Source of the DNA: a virus
Lineage: Duplodnaviria; Heunggongvirae; Uroviricota; Caudoviricetes
Virus record (IMG/VR): IMGVR_UViG_3300045988_145381
Strand: one strand, 5' to 3'
Length of the DNA: 48,428 nucleotides
Shown here: piece after piece, positions 129-48,330 of the stretch
Numbering within the stretch: position 1 is the stretch's first letter
How the letters are laid out: every line of letters begins with the position of its first letter
Program-made: the position numbers and the translations under genes
Notes under the pieces: generated by a model
Databases searched by the model: none
Seen by the model: the letters and a program-made list of their open reading frames with translations, nothing else
What the model was told of the DNA's origin: nothing

Positions 129-1064
129 CAGGCTTCTGGCGCATTACAGAAAAACCAGAACGGCGCAGATATTCCGGGAAAAGATACCTTCACCAAAAAT
201 ATTGGGGCCTGCCGCGCATATAGCGCATGGCTGGATATTGGTGGCGATAGTCAGGTCTGGACAACCGCGCAATTTATTTCGTGGCTGGAGAGTCAGGGAG
301 CATTTAACCATCCTTACTGGATGTGCAAAGGCTCATGGGCTTATGCAAATAATAAGGTCATTACAGATACAGGTTGCGGAAATATTTGTCTTGCAGGTGC
401 TGTGGTGGAAGTTATTGGCACTCGCGGCGCAATGACCATACGCGTTACCACGCCGAGCACGTCCAGCGGTGGAGGAATTACTAACGCTCAATTCACTTAT
501 ATTAATCATGGTGATGCTTACGCTCCTGGCTGGCGACGAGACTACAACACGAAAAATCAACAACCTGCATTTGCTTTAGGGCAAACAGGAAGCACTGTCG
601 GAAATGATAAAGCTGTTGGCTGGAACTGGAATAGCGGGGTCTATAACGCAAATATTGGTGGCGCATCGACATTAATCCTCCACTTCAATATGAATACGGG
701 GAGCTGCCCTGCTGCACAGTTCCGCGTGAATTACAGAAATGGCGGAATCTTTTATCGTTCAGCGCGTGATGGTTATGGCTTTGAAGCTGACTGGTCAGAG
801 TTTTACACCACAACCCGCAAACCCTCTGCGGGAGATGTTGGTGCATATACGCAGGCAGAATGTAACTCAAGGTTTATTACAGGTATTCGCCTTGGCGGTC
901 TGTCATCTGTTCAGACATGGAATGGTCCCGGCTGGTCTGACAGGTCAGGTTATGTCGTTACGGGTTCAGTTAACGGAAACCGTGATGAATTAATTGATAC
1001 AACTCAGGCAAGGCCAATTCAGTATTGCATTAATGGAACGTGGTATAACGCGGGGAGTATTTAA
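104..1064 (+). CDS. silent alternative tail-fibre C-terminal cassette (no own start; fused to the constant part after inversion)
   Basis: Frame is open from 39 to 1064 without an upstream ATG; encodes ...LGLQETVN..., matching residues 454-461 of the expressed 792-aa fibre; C-terminal INGTWYN motif shared with the expressed fibre. Confidence 0.65.
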
Positions 1065-2157: not shown

Positions 2158-4536
2158 TTAAACGCTCGCTACATTATACCAGGTGCCATTTATATACTTT
2201 TGAACGGGTCTGTAATAAACGCCCGCTATATTATCGGCAGAGTTGGACCCTGTATCCTGAACATTAATACCAGACAATACATGACCTGACGGGCACTGGA
2301 AATTCCATGTTTGCCAGTTGTTCACTCCATAATATTGCTGTGAACCAAGTCGAACATCTTTCACATATCTGGAATCAAAATTGCCATAGTTGCCGGGAAT
2401 AACTTGCGCACCGCAAAGCCAGTTTCCGTTATTATCCATGTACGCCTGACCATCGGTGCCATTGGCTGTCCTTGAATTATTAATCATGTAGATGCCAAAT
2501 TGCTTGTTCCCCAGTCCACCTATCATGAACTTGCGGTCGGCGTGATTCTGGCGAAGCAACGCCTGAGCGCTATCAGTGTTAACTATATTTTTCCCAAAGA
2601 TAGCGTTGTTATCGCGCATCTGAATCCACATACCATTACTGCTGTTAATAGCAAAACGGTCTGAAAGTGTCTCCCCTGAAACATTAAGACCACGCCCCAT
2701 CGAAACAGCGCCAGTAGCGTTATTAATCCATAATGGCCTTAATCCGTTATAAGTCCCCATGTTGTCACCGGAGTTTGTCAACATGAAGTATGTATTTGAA
2801 CCATCATTACGAATAAAGAATCCGTAATTACCATAAGCAATACGTAGGCCGTTTGCTGATTTTGATATGACTTCGCCATTTACAATGGCATTGACAAGAA
2901 CATACAAAGCATCCCATTTAAGATTCATCAGGTCTTTTGTTGTGGTACTTTGTTTGCTTCTCCATTTGAAATATTCATTGCCGTTGTCGCCTGTCTCAAA
3001 CCACATGTATGAATCAGTGTCACCATCGGCATCATTTTTAAATCCAATCTTCGCCCAGTCAGTATTTCGAATCCAGGCAAGGATTGAGTCATTTTCAAAA
3101 GTAAGCCCGCCGGACAAGGTATCGCCTGTCTTTTGAACGGCGTTACCAGCCTTGTTTACCGTTTCCTGTAAACCGAGGTATTCGATAACGGCAGCAACGG
3201 TCGATTTCGCAAGAATATCCCGCCCGACTTTTGTCAGGGTTGCCAGGCTGGCGACATCATTCCCCGTAAAATACGGAAACTTGTCTGCCGCAGTAGCAAG
3301 CCCGGCCAGCGCCGTCAGGGTGGCATCTTTCGGTTGCTTACCCGCAAGCGCGTTAGTCATGGTGGTCGCAAAATTCGGGTCGTTTCCCAGAGCCGCCGCT
3401 AACTCGTTCAGCGTATTCAGTGCGTCAGGTGACGAGTCCACGAGGGCAGCGATCGCAGCCATAACGAAAGCCGTGCTTGCGATTTGGGTATTATTCGTTC
3501 CCTGTCGCGCAGTTGGCGTTGTTGGCGTTCCGGTCAACGCAGGACTGTTTAAGGGCGCTTTCTTGTTCGTTTCATCCATTACCGCCTTGACCGCTTTCGA
3601 TGTCGCGGCCAGTGTTTCAGACGTGCTGTTGGTGGAACTACTGAGCTGAGTTATTCCCCTTACAGTCAGTGAAGCTACAGGCACATTTGTTATCTGCTCC
3701 CACGAATGCGTGTGATTGGACGGAGCCTTTCCGGCCGCAAGATCATACGCTGCCTTAACAGCCTTTGGTGTTGCTGCTAGCGTTTCAGACGTGCTGTTGG
3801 TGGCACTACTGAGCTGAACAATCCCTTTTCGCGCTGTGGTAGCGTCCTGTGCGGTGTATTTGCCATTAGCCAGGTCATATGCTGCCTTAACAGCCTTAGG
3901 CGTCGCAGCAAGCGTTTCAGACGAGCTATTGGTGGCGCTGCTAAGTTGAACAAAGCCTTTTGAGGTTAAAGTTGCATCAGGATGATTACGTGATTGTTCA
4001 TGTTTCACAATGGCTTGCTTAAGCCGCTTTGCTGAAACAGCAAGGGAATCATCTGTACCGTCATCAATTTCTTGTTCATTGGCAAATCTTGCAACCCCAA
4101 CAACAGTTTCGGTTGCGGGAGGATTAATAAACTCAATATCACCAAATGTAATATTTTTAGTATCAAGAGTCTTGATTGCTATGTCACTTGATATTAAAGC
4201 AATAGTAGATGATGCTTTATTTATTATTGCTTGTTCTTGCGAGTATACAGCAAACAACGTTCCCTTATTTGTATACAATCCTATTGTATGGACAACATAC
4301 TCATCTTTACTATCATCCTTCGCCGTTACATGAATTGTATCAGGGGAAACAACTTTGCCACCTATTGTGGTAAGTCGTTTTATTTCGTTTGTTATATTTG
4401 TTTGTGAAGTTGACGTGACATAATATCTACTACCTAAACCAACAGAAACAATCTCAACTTTATTTGTTCCTGTTTTGTTGGCATTAACCAGCTCCTGACG
4501 CCCGGCGTCAGTCATCGTAAATAATAATTTACTCAC
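2158..4536 (-). CDS. tail fibre protein (constant N-terminal part plus currently expressed variable C-terminal part)
   Basis: 792-aa ORF with three tandem ~33-aa repeats (G[IF][27 protein letters not shown]) typical of phage tail-fibre repeats; crossover site inside the ORF; followed by tfa. Confidence 0.85.
3155..3179. promoter_or_regulatory. DNA-invertase crossover site, right inverted repeat (inside tail fibre ORF)
   Basis: Perfect reverse complement of 103..127; falls at codons ~453-461 of the fibre. Confidence 0.75.
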
Positions 4537-4566
4537 GCTTAATTCCTTGAATTAACAAATTGCGAA

Positions 4567-5148
4567 TTAGCACTCGCCAATTAATCGTACATAAGACACA
4601 GGCTGACAAGCACCAACAATACCGACACCACCAGAAACATTGGCTGCTTGCGAAAATGTAAATAATGTTCTTGCCGACTTTGCGCTCTTGATACTTCTTA
4701 ACGTATCTTCCAACATCTCTTTCGAAGGAACGGCACCATCAAAAGAGTTAATCGAAGCAACAATTGAGGCTGTATATGGTTCGCCAGGTGGTGATGTTTC
4801 AAACCATTCTGTTATGTTTACCTCTCCACCCAAGCTATTTACTACATCTTCAACCGCTGCCCTTGTACCCTTTATTCGCTTTGTTCGTATTATTGATTTA
4901 AAAACAGAACGCTTTAACGATACAGGCCAACTATCCCTCCATGTATCAGCATTCCATTGCCAAGCTAAATGATCGAGAACAACTGAGTCCAGGTTATCAA
5001 CAACGCTATATATTTCTGTCTTATATATTAAATTGTTAATTGCTTGTAGTTCATCATCAATAGCTTTCGACATAGCTATCACGTTGGGATCTCTAGCTAA
5101 GTTAGGAGGTAAAACATCCAACAAGCTAACATTAAAGATATCAGCCAT
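4567..5148 (-). CDS. tail/baseplate protein (P2 gpI / Mu gp48-like)
   Basis: 193-aa ORF between the baseplate J-like gene and the tail fibre, the conserved position in P2/Mu-type tail modules. Confidence 0.5.
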   Translation of the reverse strand: MADIFNVSLLDVLPPNLARDPNVIAMSKAIDDELQAINNLIYKTEIYSVVDNLDSVVLDHLAWQWNADTWRDSWPVSLKRSVFKSIIRTKRIKGTRAAVEDVVNSLGGEVNITEWFETSPPGEPYTASIVASINSFDGAVPSKEMLEDTLRSIKSAKSARTLFTFSQAANVSGGVGIVGACQPVSYVRLIGEC

Positions 5149-6265
5149 CCTCTAACCCCGCATACTGGCAATTTATATTTCTCTCTCTGGCGACCTGCGT
5201 CTCTCCAACTACAGTAAATACAGGACTTGATATTTCTAATCTTTTAGCCCCGGCATTTTTTAAACGTTGAATAATTTCATCTGGATTTATATCTCTTCCC
5301 ATAACCGAACGTTGCCATTGTTTATACTCATCAAGAGCTTTCTCAACCTCACTTTGAATTAACGTTGTTCTGTTTTTGTCCGATGAGTTAATCCAGTATT
5401 TAATTATTATATCGTATTCAATGCTCTCTGGTTTCTTAACAAGAACTTTATCTGTGAATGGTCGAATATTAGTTGCAGAGAGAACGCTATTTATCTGCTC
5501 TAATAGTTCATCAGAAGGTATATCCCCGTTCTCTAACAAAGAACGGATTTCTACAGTTCCGGGCGATGGTGTATATACATTCACATCTTTTATATTCTGA
5601 TTGGCTGTTCTTGTCCAATATTTATAAGAATCCTCCGGCCCTGCTGTAGACAGTTTTTCCGGCGACAGTTTTATTCTTTCAGCATAATTATCATCTGACT
5701 CTGTATCAGCACCAGAATTAGATGTTGTTAGATTCCTTACGCTGGAAACATACGGCAACGGAGTCACCAACTCGTTTATTTGCCCAGGTAAAAATCCATT
5801 CCCCGATAAGCCAGGTATAACAGCATATCCTGAGACTGTACCAACTGTTTTCCCAGCTGGTATTTCCAACAAAACATCTGTTTGGAAAATAACACTATTT
5901 CCAGTTGAAATTTGAGTGCCAGCAGGTATTGTATATATCCCCGATAATTTTGTTGACAGATTAAACTCAAATGTAGTCAAGGCAGATTGAGCTTCCAGCC
6001 TAGGCGTATCCGTCAGATAGCCTATATGGTCGAGATATTCACCCCCACCATATGTAAGAAGGTTTTGTTTTGCAGAAAAATCGATAGCTTTTCTTTGCTG
6101 TATAATAATCTCACACAATGACAAGATGAATAATCTACGTGGATCAGCAGGTGCTAATGTTTCACCTGTTATACTCTCAAAAGCCCTGATTGAACGAGTT
6201 GTTATATCAGTCGGGTTAGAATCTGCGAAAGTAATATCTGGCAAACCACCGCGCGGCAACGTCAT
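5141..6265 (-). CDS. baseplate protein J-like
   Basis: 374-aa ORF, translationally coupled to its neighbours, in the J position of a P2/Mu-type baseplate cluster. Confidence 0.6.
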   Translation of the reverse strand: MTLPRGGLPDITFADSNPTDITTRSIRAFESITGETLAPADPRRLFILSLCEIIIQQRKAIDFSAKQNLLTYGGGEYLDHIGYLTDTPRLEAQSALTTFEFNLSTKLSGIYTIPAGTQISTGNSVIFQTDVLLEIPAGKTVGTVSGYAVIPGLSGNGFLPGQINELVTPLPYVSSVRNLTTSNSGADTESDDNYAERIKLSPEKLSTAGPEDSYKYWTRTANQNIKDVNVYTPSPGTVEIRSLLENGDIPSDELLEQINSVLSATNIRPFTDKVLVKKPESIEYDIIIKYWINSSDKNRTTLIQSEVEKALDEYKQWQRSVMGRDINPDEIIQRLKNAGAKRLEISSPVFTVVGETQVARERNINCQYAGLEDG

Positions 6266-19952: not shown

Positions 19953-21809
19953 CTATATGGTTACGCCTTTACTTATAACTCTACGGCGTCTTCTACGTAT
20001 ACCTGACGAGTTCTGCACATACACATTACCTCGCATTTCCTGTTCGGCAAGCCAGTTAAAATTAGGGTTCAGAATTTCCATCGCGGCAGTTGCATAGTTA
20101 CGGCAATCAAGAGGCTCGTTACGCTCGTAGACTTTCACCCACTTTTCTTTTGTCTGCCCATTTTTATATTCAAATATTTTCTTCTCTGATAATAATCCTT
20201 TAAAGTATTCGGTATCATATCCTCTGTCAGAATCTAATGGGAAATGCATATAACCAGGACCAGGATCATGTAGTTTAATTCTTGCCATGATGGTCCCTTT
20301 ACCATCATCAACCCCCAAATTAAACAACATAGCACCCACACGGTTATTATTACTTGGCTTTCCTATAAATGGTAAACCTACCCCACCACGCCCCCTGATA
20401 GAGTATATTCGCCTTGATTCTCTCGGCTTAGTAAAGCGATATACCTCTGTCGTAAAATGCCCACCAGAGTCAATACAAACGGAAGAAATCTGTAATTTTC
20501 GACCGTCACGGAATGACCAGCTACGGAGTAAGTATTCATCAAGTTGTTTCCAGACAACATCTTGTGCGGGATCACCTGGGAATATTTTATATTCTATCCC
20601 CCATGACTCCTTACCTTTTCCCCAACCGACCAATTCACAAACTAAATACGTGTCCTGTACGTCAACACCAGCACTTAACAATAAAACATCATCTGGTAAA
20701 AACTCTTCAAACCTTATTCTGCGTTGCAACAAGTATTCAGGATCGATATCGTCTTTAGCATCCTCTTTCCATGGCTCACCCAGCTTAAGGTTAATAAACT
20801 CCATTAATCCATTTTTATCGCGGTTTCTGGTTGCTTCCGTAAATTCTTCAACCAGCTCTGACAATGCAACCCACGGGGAGTAAAGACTGTTAATATGAAA
20901 ACCAACAATACCTTTAACTCCAGTATGTTCAGCTATCCATACCCCCTTCGCCAACCAATCAACGTCTGGTTTACCAGATCCGCGCATAATCCCGCCGCAC
21001 TCACAGCACTCATATCTGGCCGTTTCCGGTAACGCCTCACCTGAATCGCTCTTATCCCATCTGACTTGCGACCATTTCATCACCTGCATGGTGCCACAAC
21101 ATGGGCAAGGAACATGGTAGTAACGCTGATCGGAGAGCTTAAACCACTTGTGGATTTTGCTCGTTTCCTCCAAAACAGGAGTAGAAACAAAAACTTTCTT
21201 ACGATTATGAAAGTTGGTAGTACGCTGAATACCTAGTTTTAGTGGGTCGCCCTCCTGCGTCACACCGTAACGATCAATCTCATCAGCTAACAGTATTCGA
21301 ATTGGCCTGGATGCAAGACCTGCTGGGGAATTAGCACCAACAAGTGCTATATATCCACCAGCGTAATGCTTCATACGTATAGTCGTGCTGGACTTTTTGG
21401 CTGCACCGCGCCCCTCTTTCCCTTCATGCAGCTTGTGTTTCAAACCAGGGGAATATTTGAACGTCGGATCAATACGCTCTTTTGAAAAAGCCTCAGCCGC
21501 CTCTACCGTTGGATAAATCATCAACTGAGGAGATGGCTCCTGATCTGCAAAGTAACCCATAACATTTAGCTGTAATTCGGATTTACCAATTTGCGAGCTA
21601 CATTGCATCACTACTGTTTCTGTATCAGCGTCACCAATAACATCCATTGGTTCACGCAAATATGGCACTCGGCTTGTACGCCACGGCCCTGGCTCTGGAG
21701 ACGTTCCCGGCGCTACATGACGATACTTATCAGCCCATTCGGAAACAGTTAGCCGTGATTTAGGGCGAAGCGCACGGAAAAAAGCGGTGCTCCATACTGT
21801 TTCGCCCAT
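19953..21809 (-). CDS. terminase large subunit (lambda gpA-like)
   Basis: 618-aa ORF following the small-subunit gene; lambda A-like size and order. Confidence 0.8.
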   Translation of the reverse strand: MGETVWSTAFFRALRPKSRLTVSEWADKYRHVAPGTSPEPGPWRTSRVPYLREPMDVIGDADTETVVMQCSSQIGKSELQLNVMGYFADQEPSPQLMIYPTVEAAEAFSKERIDPTFKYSPGLKHKLHEGKEGRGAAKKSSTTIRMKHYAGGYIALVGANSPAGLASRPIRILLADEIDRYGVTQEGDPLKLGIQRTTNFHNRKKVFVSTPVLEETSKIHKWFKLSDQRYYHVPCPCCGTMQVMKWSQVRWDKSDSGEALPETARYECCECGGIMRGSGKPDVDWLAKGVWIAEHTGVKGIVGFHINSLYSPWVALSELVEEFTEATRNRDKNGLMEFINLKLGEPWKEDAKDDIDPEYLLQRRIRFEEFLPDDVLLLSAGVDVQDTYLVCELVGWGKGKESWGIEYKIFPGDPAQDVVWKQLDEYLLRSWSFRDGRKLQISSVCIDSGGHFTTEVYRFTKPRESRRIYSIRGRGGVGLPFIGKPSNNNRVGAMLFNLGVDDGKGTIMARIKLHDPGPGYMHFPLDSDRGYDTEYFKGLLSEKKIFEYKNGQTKEKWVKVYERNEPLDCRNYATAAMEILNPNFNWLAEQEMRGNVYVQNSSGIRRRRRRVISKGVTI

Positions 21810-21814
21810 GAGGT

Positions 21815-22375
21815 TTATTCTTCCTGCTTAATAAATCGGGATTCCTGGAGCGCCTGAAGCGCAAAATTAATCTCGTCTTCAATAATGCGTTCGATCTCCC
21901 TGGCTGTTTTGCCTTCACAACGGGGAGCTGCTCTTGGAGCAATACTAAATAAGCGGCTACGCAATTCATTAGCTGCCAGAAATGCATCATCCCTGACCGC
22001 ATCTTTAGCGATGAGAGAGCCTTCCTTTTCTTCAAATTCAAGGCGTTTCAGCTTTGCCTGATAAATTTTTTCTGCGGTCTTAGCCTTGTTGAATTGCACC
22101 GCAACACCGGAAGTACCACCAGCTAATCCGGCATCATCAGCGGGTAACTCTGGTTGTTCCGAAGATATCCCATGCCCTCTTTTTCCATTTTCAGCAGATA
22201 CCTCACGACCAACCTGTCGGCTCGCTTCATAAGCCGCACTGGCTTTATCAAAATCCAGCTTGCCGCTTTTCAGCACTGGAATGCGACCGGAACGACAGAG
22301 CTTCGTAACCATTGCCGGAGAAATACCTTTCCGGCGAGCAAACTCTGACTTACTGACGATGGCCATTACTTGCAA
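21815..22375 (-). CDS. terminase small subunit (putative)
   Basis: 186-aa ORF with N-terminal HTH-like segment (...ARRKGISPAMVTKLCRSGRIP...) directly upstream of TerL. Confidence 0.5.
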   Translation of the reverse strand: MQVMAIVSKSEFARRKGISPAMVTKLCRSGRIPVLKSGKLDFDKASAAYEASRQVGREVSAENGKRGHGISSEQPELPADDAGLAGGTSGVAVQFNKAKTAEKIYQAKLKRLEFEEKEGSLIAKDAVRDDAFLAANELRSRLFSIAPRAAPRCEGKTAREIERIIEDEINFALQALQESRFIKQEE

Positions 22376-22956
22376 CCATTAGCAAGATACTGAACAAATC
22401 CCTCATGCGTTTCATGCGCGTCGTGGTACTGACGATAAACATCCAGCAACAATGCAATTTCCATATCCGTCGCGGGAATACGTTCTTTATCAATAGCCAG
22501 GTACTTAATTTGAACAACAGGGGAAGAATTATCGTCTTCTTCCTGCGGCTGTTCATCGCTTAACATTTCGTCAAGCTCTGCATCATTAAACCCAAGCAGA
22601 TCAATATCAAAATCATCATCCATTAACTCTTTGACTTCTTCGGCCAGAAGCTGCATATCCCAGCCAGCATTTAAGGCCAGCTTGTTATCTGCAATCCTGT
22701 AAGCCTTCTTCTGTTTTTCAGAAAGGTTACTCAACCGAATCGCCGGAACTTTATCCATTTCCAGAATTTCGGCTGCTGCAAGCCGACCATGCCCCGCAAT
22801 CAGTTCATTCTTTTCATCGATCAGCACAGGATTAGTGAAACCGAACTCACGGATACTGTTCACCAACTGTTCAACCTGCTCATCTGAATGAGTCCGTGAA
22901 TTTTTGGCGTATCTGAGCAGCTTACCGACTGGTAAATATTCGATTTTTAGAGCCAT
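22366..22956 (-). CDS. ParB-like nuclease-domain protein
   Basis: 196-aa ORF with ParB N-terminal domain pattern (...NPVLIDEKNELIAGHGRLAAA...); paralog of 25623..26246; overlaps the TerS start. Confidence 0.65.
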   Translation of the reverse strand: MALKIEYLPVGKLLRYAKNSRTHSDEQVEQLVNSIREFGFTNPVLIDEKNELIAGHGRLAAAEILEMDKVPAIRLSNLSEKQKKAYRIADNKLALNAGWDMQLLAEEVKELMDDDFDIDLLGFNDAELDEMLSDEQPQEEDDNSSPVVQIKYLAIDKERIPATDMEIALLLDVYRQYHDAHETHEGFVQYLANGCK

Positions 22957-23513
22957 TTTTTAACCGCCATAACACAACAGGTTAAAGAAAACTGTTTAAC
23001 TTATTGATACTAAAAGAGAAAAATGACGATCTTTTTACTCATAAAAAATCACACAAACCAGCATAATCATCTGATTTTATTAAGTTTTTATAAGTAAAAA
23101 GGATCTTGAGATGGTGTTTTGGTTAAAAGATTGGATGTATTTGCATGATTTATAACGATTTTTATCAGAACAACATCACATTGGTTAAAGATCTGCGCGT
23201 ATCTTGATGATCTAAAAGAAAATTTTCTACTTTCTTTTTACCAGCACAAATACAGCAAAAAATCACGTTTTCCCGATATTTTTCAATGAGATGAGTAAAT
23301 TTCTTTTACCGCAACTTTTAACCTAACTTTTTTCACGTTTAGCTAGCCGAACATCGGGGTTCGAATGACCCGCATCCAACGCTTTTGGTCAGAAGGACCC
23401 AATTCTGCCGGACGATGAAACGATGCTCGTGCTCCCCCACAGACAGCCAGCGAGCGACGCTACAGAACACAGTGAATACACTATGCATAACAACACCATC
23501 AACCACACGATGA

Positions 23514-24249: not shown

Positions 24250-25629
24250 CTACTTAATCAACGGCCGGAAAGCCGCCAGCACATCATCAGATCGTCCGAT
24301 TGTTGAACCACCAGGCAACGGCAACTCAAACTCAAAACGAACAGCTTTCTCCAGACTCGCCCAACTAAGGGAATCATCGTTAATGACGTGCAAATACCAG
24401 CTCTTACAGTTGAATATTGACCGCTTAATCCTGAAACCATGTACACGACACAACTGCTTCACTTCATCATCAGAGTGGAACTTCTGGTAAAACCAGTGCC
24501 CCTTCCGGTACAACGCGGTAAAACCGTTATGATCAATAAAATAAAGCCGGCTTTTGGAACTCGCCGCTTGTGTTTGCTTCAGGACTGTTTCCAGCTCTCC
24601 ACGGCTACGACCAGAAAAGAATATTGACCCACCAGCTTTACACAGGCCTTTCAGAACCGTCAGAACGGACCATTCAGCCTCGACACTGTCGACCGAGTTC
24701 AAAACGCTATCGCAAATCACGTAGTCGTAACGCCCTCGCGTTTTTAAGTCATCCACCAGCGTATCAATCATCCGGTTTGTTGCAGCCCTATCCAGAGTGT
24801 TTCCTGCGCCCTTACGGCGGAAAAGCTCGAGATCATGCAGGTTATACCCCTTTGCCCTGAGCATTCGCGCGTAGTCTCCCTGCCCCGAACCAAAATCAAT
24901 TCCTCTTGGCGTCTTGGCAATGATCGGGAGGATCAACGACTCATACAGGTTTGATTTCAGGCTGCCACCATTACGCAACCGCATAAGCTGCGCATACGTC
25001 TGGATGTATGTTGTTTTCTCCAGATGAGAATACTCAAATACACCATAAGTTTTATTCAGATAACTTTGGTATTTTTCCTTCTCAACATCAGGGATCACAA
25101 ACACCGTTAGCGGTGTGCGCGTCATCTTCGCTGCTAATGCATACTGAGCACAGTGAATAACCTCACCAGACTGAGTAGCAACACAACCACCCCACGGACC
25201 ATACTTGATAACCAGTTCCGCTATGTTCTTTCGAACATATGCCATTTTCGCGCGCATATTGCCTGAGATCTGGCTTGCCGATACCTGAACAAAACCATGC
25301 TTATCTTCCAGACCGGACACCCTGCAACGCTCATCTCCGCTATCAAAATCCGTTCCGTTATGCAGTTGGTTAAACCGTACTTCGTCGTATACCGTCGTTT
25401 CACAGGGCAACACATACACCGCAGCACGCGTTATTCCCAACTTACGTAGCGCCTTCGTCCTTTGGTGTCCCGCCACCAGCAAATCGCCGCGCACTATCAA
25501 TGGCTTCACAAGCCCCAGCTCCCTGACGCTTTCCGCCAGCCTCGCAAGATCATCCTCACCGATAAAACGCGGGTTATATTCCGCGCCGCGTAGGTGCGTT
25601 ATGTCGTAATTGAGGTGAAGCATCAGCAC
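24250..25629 (-). CDS. ParB-like N-terminal domain fused to class I SAM-dependent methyltransferase
   Basis: 459-aa ORF; N-terminus ParB-like (...LIVRGDLLVAGHQRTKALRKLG...); motif I IDFGSGQGDYARML and motif II-like YDYVICDSVLN. Confidence 0.65.
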   Translation of the reverse strand: MLMLHLNYDITHLRGAEYNPRFIGEDDLARLAESVRELGLVKPLIVRGDLLVAGHQRTKALRKLGITRAAVYVLPCETTVYDEVRFNQLHNGTDFDSGDERCRVSGLEDKHGFVQVSASQISGNMRAKMAYVRKNIAELVIKYGPWGGCVATQSGEVIHCAQYALAAKMTRTPLTVFVIPDVEKEKYQSYLNKTYGVFEYSHLEKTTYIQTYAQLMRLRNGGSLKSNLYESLILPIIAKTPRGIDFGSGQGDYARMLRAKGYNLHDLELFRRKGAGNTLDRAATNRMIDTLVDDLKTRGRYDYVICDSVLNSVDSVEAEWSVLTVLKGLCKAGGSIFFSGRSRGELETVLKQTQAASSKSRLYFIDHNGFTALYRKGHWFYQKFHSDDEVKQLCRVHGFRIKRSIFNCKSWYLHVINDDSLSWASLEKAVRFEFELPLPGGSTIGRSDDVLAAFRPLIK

Positions 25630-26246
25630 ACCTCCCCAGCCAGCAATGCGGATACAAATCCGATATAGCTGCCATTATCATCAACATAACGAGACACCGC
25701 GCAGTCAAAACGATCCGCTTCCTCATCCGTTGCCGGGATTTTATGACCTCCAAATGACAGGTACTGAACTTTTACGCCTGATTTGGCCTCATCCTTCTCA
25801 AATGGGATATCCATACCCTCTGTGTCATCGTAGACCGCCGCACTCAATAAGTTATCCAGTTCGCGCTGAGTAAAACCAATTGAGTCCAGAGCAAAATCAT
25901 CGGCCGCAAGATCTGCAAGCTCCGCGCTTAACAACTCTTCATCCCAACCAGCATTCAGCGGAATACGGTTGTCGGCCAGACGATATGCCTTCTTCTGATT
26001 CTCCGTTAGCCCAGCCAGAACAATGCAGGGAACATCATCCATCCCCAACTGAGTGGCCGCAGCAATTCGACCATGACCAGCAATTACAACGTTGTTCTCG
26101 TCTATCAGGATCGGATTAGTCCATCCGTACTCCTGTATGCTGGCAACAATCTGATCTACCTGCTCCACGGAGTGTGTGCGAGCGTTCTTTTCATAACCAA
26201 TCAACACAGAAAGTGGTAAAGAAACCACATTAAGATGTTTTGTCAT
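25623..26246 (-). CDS. ParB-like nuclease-domain protein
   Basis: 207-aa ORF, paralog of 22366..22956 (...NPILIDENNVVIAGHGRIAAA...QKKAYRLADN...); coupled to the methyltransferase gene. Confidence 0.65.
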   Translation of the reverse strand: MTKHLNVVSLPLSVLIGYEKNARTHSVEQVDQIVASIQEYGWTNPILIDENNVVIAGHGRIAAATQLGMDDVPCIVLAGLTENQKKAYRLADNRIPLNAGWDEELLSAELADLAADDFALDSIGFTQRELDNLLSAAVYDDTEGMDIPFEKDEAKSGVKVQYLSFGGHKIPATDEEADRFDCAVSRYVDDNGSYIGFVSALLAGEVC

Positions 26247-29315: not shown

Positions 29316-29391
29316 TGGTGGCCCCTACCGGATTTGAACCGATGACCGTGCGATTATGAGTCGCCTGCTCTAACCACTGAGCTAAGGGGCC
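29316..29391 (-). tRNA. tRNA, anticodon CAU (Ile2-like or Met)
   Basis: 76-nt cloverleaf GGCCCCTTAGCTCAGTGGTTAGAGCAGGCGACTCATAATCGC...GGTTCAAATCCGGTAGGGGCCACCA with encoded CCA; 5' half matches E. coli ileX-type tRNA as recalled from memory. Confidence 0.85.
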
Positions 29392-38790: not shown

Positions 38791-39459
38791 ATGGAGTCTC
38801 GACAAATGACTATCTCTGTAGGTATTTTCAACGGAAAAGGCGGCGTAACCAAATCAACAATTGCCCGTGCTTTAGCAGTTGCTTATGCAAAGGCTGGCTG
38901 GAATGTATGCCTGATCGATATGGATGTGCTTAACGGAACGGTAACGCGTTGGGTACAACGCAGAATGGCCAACAATATCGAACCAGCAATCGCGGCGCAG
39001 CCGTGCGGCACACCATCACAAGTCCAGAAAATCATCGAATCAGAAGTATACGACCTGGTTATCGTCGATGGCGGTGCCTACGCATCTGAATCAGTACCGA
39101 AGCTCTCTGAATTTCTGGATATGGTTATTTTGCCAACCAGATTCTCTACCGATGACCTGGAAACCACCGTTAACACTGCTCACGGCATCGTTAAAAAGGG
39201 TGTACCAATCAAGAAAATTTGCATGGTGTTTTCCGGCGCGGCTGAAAACGAAGCTGACTATATTGAAGCCCAAGAGTACCTGGCTAATACGCCATACTTT
39301 GTTGTTGATAAGTACATTCCCCACAAGCCAGCTCTGAGCAAAGCTCAGGATAAGGGCTTAAGCCTCATTGAGTGCTCATACGTTGCGCCACGCAAAAAGG
39401 CAGACGACGTTATTCAGGGGATTATCAACCAGCTTGAGGCTCTGACTACTGCCGCGTAA
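38791..39459 (+). CDS. ParA/ParF-type partition ATPase
   Basis: 222-aa ORF with deviant Walker A (GIFNGKGGVTKST); start may be the second Met at 38806. Confidence 0.7.
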   Translation: MESRQMTISVGIFNGKGGVTKSTIARALAVAYAKAGWNVCLIDMDVLNGTVTRWVQRRMANNIEPAIAAQPCGTPSQVQKIIESEVYDLVIVDGGAYASESVPKLSEFLDMVILPTRFSTDDLETTVNTAHGIVKKGVPIKKICMVFSGAAENEADYIEAQEYLANTPYFVVDKYIPHKPALSKAQDKGLSLIECSYVAPRKKADDVIQGIINQLEALTTAA

Positions 39460-42246: not shown

Positions 42247-42983
42247 CTACAAGGGGCTACGGCCCCTTACTCTTTTCTCTCTTATCAACACCAGAGACTT
42301 TCTGAAAATCCTTTCGAATAGCGTCAGCGTCACGCGCCAAGCCCATACTCGAACGTGTCGCCATATGACGAAAATGATCAACTGCCGGAAACAAAGAAAT
42401 AATGGACCCAATAGCTTGCAGCAAACTCGCTTTTCTACGCATCATAATTCCACCATAACCGATAACCACCCTTCAGACACACCCCCCCCTCCCCCCATAC
42501 AGGGTGCCCTTTACCGGAGTTCCGGCCCCTTCTCAAAAGCATCAAAAAAAGCTCGAGATCGAGTACCGGAACTCATGCCACCAGATAGCTCCACATCGTT
42601 TCCAATGCTTCGCCGCCGTGTGCGCCCTGTGGCCCACAATCATGCCATTGGTCGTCTGATATACCTTCTTCTGCTCATAGAGCACAGGCGAGTTGTCGCA
42701 CTCCTGCCTTTCTCAGACTCGACTTAGTTTAGATCGCTGTTCCTGGCTTGCGTCAGCACACTTTCCCCTTGTACGCATACCCGCGCGCCACTTCGCCCAA
42801 AAACACCGAACCCAACGAAGTGGCAAAGACAACGACGCGAGCGTGAGTCTGAAATGGGCACCAGTAAAAAAGGGGTTGCAGGCGCAAAAAGATTTGATTA
42901 TCTTTAGACGCAAGAAAGCCGCCCCAATCAAGAGGTGTCTTTTTAAATCCAGCCTACCAAGCAAGATTTAAATTTCAGACTGA

Positions 42984-43007
42984 AAACCGCCCGGCAAGGC
43001 GGTTTTT
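42984..43007 (+). terminator. rho-independent terminator
   Basis: aaccgcc-cggcaa-ggcggtt hairpin followed by tttt. Confidence 0.5.
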
Positions 43008-43055
43008 GTCTTTCTGGCGCTTACATTACACCACCATAAAACGATCCGTAAAGGA

Positions 43056-43328
43056 TCATTTGATCCCTTGTTCCAATTCTGCCGACACTTTAACCTTTTC
43101 CCATACAAGGGTTTGCAGCCTTAACAGAATCGCATCTTTATCAAGGTGTGAAAGATCCTTAACCATATCGTCAAACGACAGAACGCGAATGGCCATCTCA
43201 ATGACCCTCGGCGGCTCCCCCTTCTCATATCGCTTATATGTAGCCAACGATATCCCAAACTCTTCGGCTGCTCGCTCCTGCGTCCAGTTCATCCCACGAC
43301 GCCATAATTTCAATTCGTAACCCGTCAT
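43056..43328 (-). CDS. XRE-family HTH transcriptional regulator
   Basis: 90-aa ORF with HTH (...WTQERAAEEFGISLATYKRYEKG...). Confidence 0.6.
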   Translation of the reverse strand: MTGYELKLWRRGMNWTQERAAEEFGISLATYKRYEKGEPPRVIEMAIRVLSFDDMVKDLSHLDKDAILLRLQTLVWEKVKVSAELEQGIK

Positions 43329-46379: not shown

Positions 46380-46611
46380 GTTTTAATAAAAGAAAGTGAT
46401 TTTGCATTTATTTGTTTAGTGCATCTATTATAAAAAACCATTTGCATATACATATCAAAACTGTGGATAACTTTATTAGCCGATGCCTGTAAAGGCGATA
46501 TTTTTGCTGTGTTCAGGTTTAGAGAAAATTAATTTAGATTGTTTTTTGAACAGATATTTTATTGCGACGTAGATAATCCTCCGGTAAAACCGGATTCATC
46601 ATTCAGGTGGG
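46380..46611. promoter_or_regulatory. candidate replication origin (AT-rich region with DnaA box) downstream of repA
   Basis: tgtggataa (reverse complement of TTATCCACA) at 46462..46470 within an AT-rich stretch about 140 bp beyond the repA stop. Confidence 0.45.
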
Positions 46612-47451
46612 TTAATGTTGGAGTGATTTCCAGGTCTTTCTTAGCCTGTTATAACGCTGCTCAACGAGGGAGCGTAAATATGCAAGGTCAGCACCAGGAT
46701 ACATGCCATCAGCAAATTCCTGGCTAACCTCTCTAGTGATTTGATGGCGAAGTTCGGCCTCTCCCTTTTCCTGAACAAGACGCGCAGCTCTCTCCGCTGC
46801 TTTCTGTTTTGCCTTTATCTCTCTGGCCGTCTTCCTCTGACGCCATACATTCTCCATCTGCTCCTGAATAACAATACGCTTATAATCAGCCTCCGTTATC
46901 GCTTTTTTAAGCCGTTCGCTATTCTTCGCATTGAAGTAATTAAGTTTCTGGCTAACCGCACGTCTCCATGCTTGTTCAGTAATACCAACTGTTTCCAGCA
47001 GTTGATCACGAATCTCGATTTTCGCTGGCCAATACTGTTTATTCACCCGATCCCAGCGACGTTCATAATCAATAAAACCTAACTCTTTCAGTTGCGACAA
47101 CGCCCTTGTACAGCGCGTTATAGACTTGTTCCCAGCTTCGGATACGGTAGACAGGCCGCAAAAATCAGCCAACGCCTCAGCACTGGCCAGAACCCGCTTA
47201 GAAATGATGTTTACATGGTGCAAAATCGCAGCAATCACAGCATTAATCGCCCGACGACGATGCTCGTTTATCCGGCGTTTCCGCTCTGACGGTTGATTAA
47301 CGTAGAACGCAACCTCACACGTAAGATCACGACCATTAATGCGCTGTAAAGCATCAGATAACACCAGCGGCAGCTTGTGCGTATGGTGCTTTGGAGGCTG
47401 GAACTCCGGCGACAAATTACAAACGTAAGCTGAACGTAGAGACGGCATTGG
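46612..47451 (-). CDS. repA: IncFII-type replication initiator RepA
   Basis: ORF 46612..47604 trimmed to MDRPMPSLRS...; strong resemblance to R100/R1 RepA1 as recalled (...KSITRCTRALSQLKELGFIDYE...). Confidence 0.75.
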   Translation of the reverse strand, partial: PMPSLRSAYVCNLSPEFQPPKHHTHKLPLVLSDALQRINGRDLTCEVAFYVNQPSERKRRINEHRRRAINAVIAAILHHVNIISKRVLASAEALADFCGLSTVSEAGNKSITRCTRALSQLKELGFIDYERRWDRVNKQYWPAKIEIRDQLLETVGITEQAWRRAVSQKLNYFNAKNSERLKKAITEADYKRIVIQEQMENVWRQRKTAREIKAKQKAAERAARLVQEKGEAELRHQITREVSQEFADGMYPGADLAYLRSLVEQRYNRLRKTWKSLQH

Positions 47452-47494
47452 TCTATCCATATGTTCGCTCTTGCGTCCACGGAAAACCAACGTA

Positions 47495-47576
47495 TAATGG
47501 GAGTTGTCGAGGCGCCCATGGTTAGTTGTTGGTTTTCCTTTCCGTGGATGTCGCAAGAAGCCCGCAGATTTATCTG
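47495..47576 (+). ncRNA. candidate antisense RNA to the repA leader (CopA-like)
   Basis: Plus-strand TTGCGT-16bp-TATAAT promoter at 47461..47488, long imperfect stem, terminator hairpin gcccgcagatttatctgcgggc plus ttttt at 47548..47576. Confidence 0.45.
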
Positions 47577-47775
47577 CGGGCTTTTTGTTTCCATATCTGG
47601 TCACTTTTCAACCAGACACCCACAATCATAACCACGTTACGTGGTTTTAAGAGAACTCTACCACAACACTTTCGGTCATGCACGAAGTCTCTCACTGATC
47701 GAACGATAATCCACCAGTAAAAGGATCTAAATTGGATCTCGTTTTGCGAGCATCATACTACTGGCCTAACTCCAG

Positions 47776-48330
47776 TCAATGATTCCCAGCCGGAAACCTG
47801 CGGTAAAGCGTGGATAAGGTAACATCGAAGATAATCGCTATCCGCTTACGTGAAACACCATTCGCAATAAGCCTTCCGATCTGTTCCCATTGCTCTGGTG
47901 CCAATTTTGAGCGGCGTCCTCCTATCCTGCCGTTAGCCCTTGCCACCGCCAATCCTGCACGCGTTCTTTCAATCATATTTTCCCGCTCCATCTCTGCGAC
48001 TGCACTCAGCATCGTGTAGGCAAAGCGGCCAATTGAAGTGCTAATTTTTATCCCTTCCGTAATCGAAATAAACTCAATGTTGTTTGATAAAAAATAGTTT
48101 AGTAAATCAACAAGATGAATCAGAGAACGCCCCATTCGGTCCAGCTTCCAGACAATAACCGTATCGCCCGGCCGTAACACCTTCAGTAGCTTATCAAGTC
48201 CTGGTCGTTTTGATTTAGCACCGGATATTTTATCTTCAAAAATCCGGTCACATCCTGAACTCCTGAGCGCCTCCAATTGTAATTCCAAATTCTGGTCAAA
48301 AGTTGACACCCTCGCATAACCATATTGCAT
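47776..48330 (-). CDS. serine DNA invertase (Hin/Gin/Cin/Pin family)
   Basis: 184-aa ORF MQYGYARVSTFDQNLELQLEAL...DRMGRS... with catalytic Ser motif and C-terminal HTH; start wraps to window position 30; crossover site upstream. Confidence 0.9.
   Translation of the reverse strand: MQYGYARVSTFDQNLELQLEALRSSGCDRIFEDKISGAKSKRPGLDKLLKVLRPGDTVIVWKLDRMGRSLIHLVDLLNYFLSNNIEFISITEGIKISTSIGRFAYTMLSAVAEMERENMIERTRAGLAVARANGRIGGRRSKLAPEQWEQIGRLIANGVSRKRIAIIFDVTLSTLYRRFPAGNH

Follow-up and report, generated by a model that had tools for sequence, protein, structure and literature searches.

A probable lambda-type cos site in the AT-rich gap upstream of the terminase genes of a 48-kb phage-plasmid

The IMG/VR virus record IMGVR_UViG_3300045988_145381, a stretch of 48,428 nucleotides (nt) assigned to the Caudoviricetes and referred to here as the window, is a phage-plasmid of ca. 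48 kb with a full myovirus late region. Between the end of a gene coding for a 239-amino-acid (aa) protein (23514) and the start of a ParB-like gene (22956), it has a gap of exactly 557 bp (22957-23513). To judge from comparative evidence, this gap holds (with a probability that we put at roughly 0.85) a lambda-type cos site, located on the minus strand and belonging to a terminase of the gpA type, and we propose that its cosB-like repeats are bound by the small terminase subunit (TerS). It is an ordinary kind of element, previously unmapped for this family of phage-plasmids, and its variant features compared to lambda are an extended multi-site cosB and a ParB-like gene placed between cosB and terS. 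An earlier note on this DNA, made from the letters alone, had suggested a packaging recognition site here. The suggestion has strong comparative support, since a cosQ-cosN-cosB arrangement of the lambda type lies in the gap, but the predicted cleavage falls at its GC-richer upstream end (23359-23370), outside the AT-rich cluster of GATC sites. The site is unannotated in the family records examined and unmentioned in the searchable literature, and literature searches with the 12-mers of the cohesive ends returned no relevant paper.

A comparison with the cos regions of phages that have gpA-like terminases, proposed as a check in the same note, gave matches to lambda in cosQ, in the nick and in the block that follows it. 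With the nicks placed by record ends (shown as slashes), lambda (NC_001416) reads ...TTTAC GGGTCCT TTCCGGTGATCCGACAGGTTACG / GGGCGGCGACCT / CGCGGGTTTTCGCTA... and the window ...GAATT GGGTCCT TCTGACCAAAAGCGTTGGATGCG / GGTCATTCGAAC / CCCGATGTTCGGCTAGCTA... Both have the same order and orientation of elements, the heptamer GGGTCCT 30 nt before the first nick, a stagger of 12 nt and CG/GG at the first nick. The heptamer at that position we take to be the lambda cosQ, which is reportedly this same 7-bp element. It starts at -30 in lambda, the window and Vibrio phage XM1 (vB_VpaM_XM1) and at -29 in Vibrio phage X29 and in lineage L011, and it is kept in all the lineages examined. The same register was obtained independently by a MAFFT alignment of eight sequences including lambda, in which CG/GG at the first nick is invariant. 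The block that directly adjoins the second nick (window, TTCGGCTAGCTA; XM1, TTTCGTCTAGCTA; lambda, TTTTCGCTATTTA) shares TTTCG-CTA with lambda and would correspond to its I2 segment. In lambda, where cos is composed of cosQ, cosN and cosB, the 7-bp cosQ is highly conserved and needed for the termination of packaging, and termination also requires I2, the interval between cosN and cosB (PMC4669245). Both phages encode a large terminase subunit (TerL) of the gpA family and a lambda-family portal protein. The cohesive end itself is unrelated; the 12-mer GGTCATTCGAAC matches that of lambda at 3 of 12 positions, which places it outside the lambda-like cohesive-end group (lambda, 434, phi80, 21, N15 and gifsy-1).

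The ends of deposited phage records fall on these predicted nicks. Around the gap, the window shows 98.7-99.6% identity with Escherichia phage vB_EcoM-613R2 and Yersinia phages vB_YpM_39, vB_YpM_41 and vB_YpM_44, the same four phage records, with no further closer DNA relatives, that a “distant” BLAST search with the cos core returned. Read along the minus strand of the window, the records of vB_YpM_39 and vB_YpM_41 start with GGTCATTCGAAC/CCCGATG and end with ...GGATGCG, and that of vB_YpM_44 ends with ...GGATGCGGGTCATTCGAAC and starts with CCCGATG. The breakpoints in these ca. 99%-identical records are thus exactly 12 nt apart, which is what is expected from assemblies of cos phages, because the filled-in overhang lands on one end or the other. 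A search with the TerS protein, independent of the DNA site, retrieved Vibrio phages X29, phi 2, XM1, R20L, R19R and PVP-XSN (ca. 42% identity) and Acinetobacter phage HFM1 (35%). All these homologues are encoded at the left end of linear records, and in the Vibrio phages a ParB-like gene precedes TerS. The records of XM1, R20L and PVP-XSN start with GGTGCTCGCGAC/CCCGCG, and that of XM1 also ends with the same 12-mer; X29, whose ends were defined by read coverage, ends with GGTGCTCGCGAC and starts directly after it. In the HFM1 record a “5' cohesive sequence ... identified by PhageTerm” is annotated, and the sequence there is ...TTGCG/GGACCGAGGAC/CCCA. The Vibrio and HFM1 ends are therefore in register with those of the Yersinia phages (GCG/GG-N-AC/CCC). 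A 5' polarity of the overhang is inferred, and what bears on it is the HFM1 annotation and the analogy with lambda. The papers describing XM1 and vB_EcoM-613R2 contain nothing on termini.

The arrangement extends well beyond close relatives. The 18-mer around the nick was found in 27 IMG/VR contigs, most of them ca. 65% identical to the window over 768 nt, which share a conserved island of ca. 120 bp from cosQ to the first repeats. We scanned viral loci with the pattern GGGTCCT-N19/20-GCG/GGT-N7-AC/CCC and recovered at least 122, with 33 different 12-mers among the matches listed, to which the following counts also refer. Within the 95 loci that had at least 1.5 kb of downstream sequence, a gpA-like TerL was found downstream on the same strand in 88, and on the other strand in none; outside the clade of the window the figure was 68 of 74, with TerL proteins 21-56% identical that start ca. 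700 nt away. Since gpA-like TerL genes sit downstream of nearly all of them, the signature appears to mark the cos sites of gpA-type terminases in general. Lambda cosQ and the nick flanks thus keep their spacing in gpA phages whose TerL is only 21-56% identical to that of the window, and with the signature one could locate the cos sites of prophages and metagenomic contigs with no need to sequence virions.

Downstream of the predicted nicks there is an array of short repeats. GGTWAAAR is present seven times in the 402-nt stretch from the second nick to the ATG of the ParB-like gene, where 0.17 are expected; none of 1,000 dinucleotide shuffles reached seven. Its 10 further copies in the 48 kb are scattered one by one, with no clusters elsewhere. 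Including two weaker versions (GTAAAAAG), there are nine sites, with offsets counted from the nick: forward at +36, +49, +117, +320 and +394 and inverted at +169, +231, +259 and +372 (Table 1). As in lambda, forward and inverted repeats coexist, and the first lies ca. 36-50 nt from the nick, where lambda has R3. In lineages that are ca. 65% identical, the distance from nick to ATG is always 400-402 nt, and the offsets and orientations of the sites are kept. The most divergent of them, L011 (TerS 53% and ParB-like protein 61% identical), has a motif of its own, GGTTAACAA, forward at +36, +50 and +117 and inverted at +169, +230 and +302, so at least six sites appear to have changed in concert. 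In the Vibrio phages five GTTAACA sites follow one another from +38 onward, and other lineages have their own repeats from ca. +36 (GTTGACA, CTAAAGAG, CTTAAC, CTGTGCA or CTTTCGC). Conserved cosQ and cosN followed by lineage-specific repeats are the pattern of a cosB, and at the sequence level this is what the family appears to have. Packaging specificity in lambda and phage 21 is determined by repeats of this kind via the recognition helix of TerS (PMC4669245).

The protein that binds the repeats is most likely TerS, by means of its N-terminal helix-turn-helix. Its putative recognition helix differs over three motif classes (SPAMVTK, SRAAITK and SHVWVKK), which is consistent with binding by TerS, although three lineages are too few as proof. 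Alternatively, the ParB/Srx-like proteins, and not TerS, could use the repeats as a loading site or a kind of centromere, given that three genes with a ParB_N domain flank the gap and that lineages with a motif of the GGTT-A-A class mostly have a ParB-like first gene. We find this quite unlikely. In lineage L053, which lacks the ParB-like gene and has TerS immediately downstream of cos, GTTGACA repeats occupy the same offsets, and it is because of this case that TerS is favored as the binder; lineages lacking the ParB-like gene still have repeats at +30 to +60. Furthermore, Pfam matches only the ParB N-terminal domain in the adjoining 196-aa protein, with no helix-turn-helix domain detected, a separate ParA partition gene is located 16 kb from the gap (38791-39459), and the sites are not palindromic as parS is. 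A parS centromere was discarded on the same three features. A candidate for a natural TerS swap, L023 (IMGVR_UViG_2880350357_000007), was also discarded, as its TerS (3665-4213) is merely frameshifted; the frame is broken by frameshifts and stop codons in a relative that is otherwise intact, so that it is either a pseudogene or a sequencing error.

Several points weigh against a lambda-type cos site. The repeat pattern was defined after inspecting the region, and the virion ends of the exact window element are predicted from the records of its relatives. The CG dinucleotide, conserved at both nick flanks in lambda-like phages (PMC4669245), is invariant here on the left (CG/GG) but not found on the right, where the window has AC/CC and lambda CT/CG. 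TerS is not detectably of the Nu1 family: there was no match to Pfam Phage_Nu1 or, by BLASTP, to lambda Nu1, and hhalign placed its residues 4-35 on the helix-turn-helix of Nu1 (residues 3-33) weakly (E 0.0023, probability 12.7%); a sequence search of the PDB with TerS also gave no meaningful match. The record of R19R starts 10 nt into the site, not 12, and for this reason the overhang length is predicted as 12 nt with a margin of 1-2 nt. For the Yersinia phages, the records bear the flag “circular”, and no paper was found on how their ends were chosen, as would suit shared record starts that are an annotation convention or an assembly artifact of phages with headful packaging. Such an origin of the starts is extremely improbable. 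The starts are found 414 and 402 nt before the first gene rather than at a gene boundary, exist in two alternatives 12 nt apart, and share their register among separately deposited records (the Yersinia phages, X29, XM1, R20L/R19R, PVP-XSN and HFM1), with read coverage as evidence in X29 and the PhageTerm annotation in HFM1; besides, gpA-family terminases are cos enzymes. Finally, the array spans ca. 400 nt with nine sites, compared to ca. 120 bp and three sites in the lambda cosB, and across the wider family the distance from the nick to the first gene is mostly 40-160 nt (median 70). The length-constrained 400-nt array is specific to this clade, its distal two-thirds have no lambda counterpart, and much of it may do something other than act as cosB.

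One possibility is that the distal AT-rich part (ca. 22957-23260) is mainly regulatory, with a late or activator-dependent promoter or an operator for the ParB-like/terS/terL operon and the repeats serving as operator sites, which would be compatible with a cos site upstream of it. The extra ca. 250 nt of this clade want a reason when relatives mostly need 40-160 nt, this is the lowest-GC stretch of the window, as is typical of promoters or of DNA bound by H-NS, and it contains a conserved 31-nt inverted repeat bounded by GATC and, 40-50 nt before the ATG, an IHF consensus. However, two scans, one of them looser, detected no sigma-70-like promoter on the coding (minus) strand, which leaves the late promoter put forward in the earlier note unsupported, although an activator-dependent one may exist. 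The cosN-proximal sites at +36 and +49, which are conserved family-wide, are built from the same motif, and this motif clusters nowhere else, unlike the sites of a general transcription factor. Moreover, the genes upstream are co-oriented, with no terminator between. A mainly regulatory role therefore looks doubtful to us, although it deserves some weight. Because all the flanking genes point the same way, transcription could plausibly read through cos, as it does in lambda. Neither a terminator-like site nor an Rfam match (E ≤ 1) turned up in the gap. In XM1 (locus L036, 190-230), a terminator-like hairpin with a T-run (GGCCTAATGGTCGGGGCTTTTTTT) precedes cos, ca. 100-170 nt upstream of cosQ, and has no equivalent in the window. 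The IHF match is perfect in lineage L010 and has one mismatch in L011; it overlaps an R-like GTTAAA and may be coincidental. No IHF consensus was found between +117 and +169, that is, between the first and second groups of oppositely oriented sites, a difference from lambda. The phasing of A-tracts was significant against mononucleotide shuffles, but P rose to ca. 0.08 under a control that keeps the number of tracts.

The gap had also been described in the earlier note as AT-rich, poor in open reading frames and with clustered GATC sites, and these descriptions proved right. Inside it there are only mechanically called open reading frames of 33-42 aa, plus one of 91 aa that is out of frame and overlaps the gene of the 239-aa protein, and the RefSeq relatives have no annotated feature here. 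Its GC content is 36.3% (44.5% for the window), although it is not uniform: the AT-rich core (22957-23330), with 28.6%, is the lowest-GC 374-bp stretch of the whole 48 kb, and the upstream part (23331-23513) has 51.9%. There are four GATC sites (23028, 23102, 23190 and 23209), the three quoted before plus one. Four or more per 557 bp are found in 7.8% of intervals of that size, which is unremarkable, but four within 186 bp in only 0.18%, at three other places besides, so the clustering is real but modest. The GGTWAAAR repeats, which the earlier note does not mention, depart from randomness much more strongly. All four read AGATC on the minus strand, and three directly adjoin repeat sites as ...AAAGATC (GGTTAAAGATC, GTAAAAAGGATC and GTAAAAAGATC). 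Since these three are tails of repeat sites, the cluster seems to be mostly a by-product of the array and not what defines the packaging site; with the weak enrichment per gap, this led us to reject GATC as the key signal. The sites at ca. +254 and ca. +328 (+327 to +329) are kept in four of five lineages and both lost in L006. Two of the repeat sites, +259 and +320, form the ends of the imperfect inverted repeat (Table 1).

Phage P1 also has a packaging site that contains GATC, and the cleavage of P1 pac depends on adenine methylation of its GATC-containing hexamers. P1, however, packages by headful with PacA/PacB and has TGATCA/G hexamers clustered around the cut, whereas in the window GATC is found 147-331 nt from the nick, in the context AGATC and as tails of repeats, and is absent in some lineages (L006 and L011). 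A Dam-controlled pac site of the P1 type was discarded given this distance, this context and the gpA-type terminase. The low GC, the nine short repeats in both orientations, the four GATC sites in 186 bp and the IHF consensus could also suggest a replication origin, for example a lytic one, with an AT-rich unwinding element, iterons and GATC under Dam/SeqA control. This we consider very improbable. DnaA boxes are not enriched in the gap, and the perfect one (TTATCCACA) lies beside repA, 23 kb away; no initiator gene adjoins the gap; there is no inflection of the GC skew; and the repeats keep their register with cosN throughout a family in which the corresponding interval is otherwise only 40-160 nt long. 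An iteron-type origin was rejected on the evidence of the DnaA boxes, with the perfect box and repA at 46.4-47.6 kb. That box, the sole perfect one in the window, is at 46462-46470, ca. 140 nt downstream of the IncFII-type repA (46612-47604), and the plasmid origin is probably there. Other places with at least four GATC sites per 186 bp include ca. 42800-43200 and ca. 47600-47800; the latter is at or just upstream of the 5' end of repA and may indicate Dam/SeqA-sensitive control of replication. A tRNA or attP fragment was considered as well and rejected; it had been suspected because GGGGTTCGAATGACCC on the plus strand resembles the T-arm of a tRNA. ARAGORN found no tRNA and Rfam nothing at E ≤ 1, and what the sequence resembles is the cohesive end itself.

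In the mechanism that we propose, the gpA-family large terminase would nick twice, 12 nt apart, at cosN to give the cohesive ends GGTCATTCGAAC, and TerS bound to the GGTWAAAAG sites would anchor TerL there. Packaging would run from cosN toward decreasing window coordinates (ParB-like gene, TerS, TerL, portal and onward) and would stop at the next cosQ-cosN arriving on the concatemer. The role of the distal 250-300 nt, which most relatives lack, is putative. It is conceivable, if unlikely, that the clade-specific distal array (ca. +160 to +400) is dispensable for basic cos function, for which relatives make do with 40-160 nt, and is a regulatory add-on that makes the initiation of packaging or the expression of the terminase operon sensitive to the state of the DNA. 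The idea is based on its length, fixed within 2 nt, on the inverted sites and on the conserved GATC fused to two facing sites (GATCCTTTTTAC...GTAAAAAGATC). It might work by Dam methylation of the GATC-tailed sites, with a logic similar to that of P1 pac on a lambda-type cos, or by loading of the adjacent ParB/Srx-like protein. If true, it could help to protect the single cos of a plasmid-borne prophage from being cut during replication as a plasmid.

An exact cos fixes the genome map of the virion. Together with the specificity repeats, it predicts which DNAs could be packaged by the terminase (satellites, cosmid-like constructs or co-resident relatives), and it helps to explain how such elements could mobilize genes. 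One locus, L031 (IMGVR_UViG_2824588292_000004), was considered as a cos-carrying satellite and rejected, because it is a deletion derivative in which a truncated ParB-like gene is joined to tail genes (4414-6018). It keeps cosQ, cosN and the repeat array, and the genes of TerS, TerL, portal and capsid are deleted; it is a defective element that might nonetheless be packaged in trans.

Among the closest known counterparts are the Vibrio phages X29, phi 2 and XM1. Their left ends have the same arrangement of cos, ParB-like gene, TerS and gpA-type TerL, with cosQ at -29/-30, a 12-mer of the form GGT-N7-AC, a CCCG...TCGTCTAGCTA block and repeats from +38. They differ in that the ParB-like gene starts only ca. 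140 nt from the nick, that the repeats in this interval are five direct copies of GTTAACA, and that TerS is 42% identical. No plasmid replication or partition module is noted in the parts of their records and papers examined (no search was aimed at one). N15, compared here by description, is likewise a phage-plasmid; it has a gpA terminase, and its cosQ and cosN are of the lambda type (PMC4669245). However, its cohesive ends are identical to those of lambda at 10 of 12 positions, its cosB is short and “simple” (R3 and rR2), its TerS is of the Nu1 type, and N15 is a linear plasmid with telomeres.

As for the element itself, the 1.1 kb around the gap match 72 E. coli records at 95% identity or more, nearly all of them plasmids of 47-51 kb, and the family was found in 72 of 5,426 complete E. 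coli genomes. It also infects Yersinia pestis. The window encodes an IncFII-type RepA, a ParA ATPase, a CI-like repressor and an invertase, and the element is a temperate myovirus kept as an IncFII-type plasmid. The genes that flank the gap are all on the minus strand and read, in this order, 207-aa ParB-like protein, 459-aa ParB_N-methyltransferase, 239-aa protein (phrog_1924, named “minor tail protein”), gap, 196-aa ParB/Srx-like protein, TerS, TerL and portal (Table 1). The stop codon of the ParB-like gene and the start of TerS overlap as TAATG (22364-22368), and because of this the two genes are probably co-transcribed and translationally coupled; the TTG start of TerS listed mechanically at 22375 is probably wrong. 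Immediately upstream of the ParB-like ATG, the R-like site at +394 may alternatively belong to the translation-initiation region.

Table 1. Predicted cos elements, repeat sites and downstream genes (window coordinates; R, repeat site with its offset from the nick)
Feature	Position	Strand	Remarks
Lineage-specific GC-rich spacer (113 nt)	23401..23513	-	From the stop codon of the 239-aa protein to cosQ; not conserved in other lineages
cosQ-like heptamer GGGTCCT	23394..23400	-	First base 30 nt upstream of first nick; single occurrence on minus strand of window
Conserved cosN left flank AGCGTTGGATGCG	23371..23383	-	Kept across lineages ca. 65% identical overall
cosN, predicted 12-nt cohesive end 5'-GGTCATTCGAAC-3'	23359..23370	-	Predicted nicks 23371/23370 and 23359/23358
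I2-like block CCCGATGTTCGGCTAGCTAAACG	23336..23358	-	After second nick; same kind in XM1 (CCCGCGTTTCGTCTAGCTA), L059 (CCCGCCGTTTCGCTAGCC) and lambda (CGCGGGTTTTCGCTATTTA)
R +36, GGTTAAAAG, forward	23315..23323	-	At +36 to +39 in every lineage; L011 and Vibrio phages with own motif
R +49, GGTAAAAG, forward	23303..23310	-	From repeat and offset scans
R +117, GGTAAAAAG, forward	23234..23242	-	L011 has GGTTAACAA at +117/118
R +169, GGTTAAAG, inverted	23183..23190	+	Adjoins GATC 23190-23193; inverted at +169/170 in all lineages including L011
R +231, GGTTAAAAG, inverted	23121..23129	+	Kept at +230 to +232
R +259 (weaker), AGTAAAAAG, inverted	23093..23101	+	Adjoins GATC 23102-23105; GATC at +254/255 in 4 of 5 lineages
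Imperfect 31-nt inverted repeat	23031..23101		77% complementary, 9-nt spacer; GATC at both outer ends (GATCCTTTTTAC ... GTAAAAAGATC)
R +320 (weaker), AGTAAAAAG, forward	23031..23039	-	Overlaps GATC 23028-23031; GATC at +327 to +329 in 4 of 5 lineages
IHF consensus WATCAANNNNTTR, match TATCAATAAGTTA	22997..23009	-	+350 to +362; one of only 5 perfect matches in window
R +372, GGTTAAAG, inverted	22980..22987	+	From repeat and offset scans
R-like +394, GGTTAAAA, forward	22958..22965	-	Directly before ParB-like ATG
ParB/Srx-like gene, 196 aa	22366..22956	-	First gene after cos; Pfam ParB_N E=3.8e-8, phrog_620 E=4.6e-75
TerS, 183 aa from ATG at 22366	21815..22366	-	phrog_57 terminase small subunit E=7.4e-42
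TerL, lambda gpA family	19953..21809	-	Pfam GpA_ATPase E=7e-76, GpA_nuclease E=1e-84

Genes coding for a ParB N-terminal (Srx-like) domain lie on both sides of cos, three in all (25623-26246, 24250-25629 and 22366-22956, all on the minus strand). The two small ones are paralogues ca. 48% identical, and the third codes for the 459-aa fusion with a SAM-methyltransferase domain (Methyltransf_23). The position of the ParB-like gene and the gene order are the same in X29 and XM1, and a ParB-like first gene after cos recurs, in larger versions of ca. 420-470 aa, in loci L059, L111 and L121. Elsewhere in the window, ARAGORN called a tRNA-Met with anticodon CAT (29316-29391, minus strand). For the near-identical plasmid p48, the RefSeq annotation has a tRNA-Ile in the matching part of the late region; should the two be one and the same gene, lysidine modification would make it read as Ile. 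A serine invertase (Resolvase and HTH_7 domains; 47776-48330, minus strand) lies beside a gp37_C tail-fiber gene (321-1064, plus strand), a pair that spans the ends of the window if the element is circular and that looks like a host-range switch of the Gin/Cin type.

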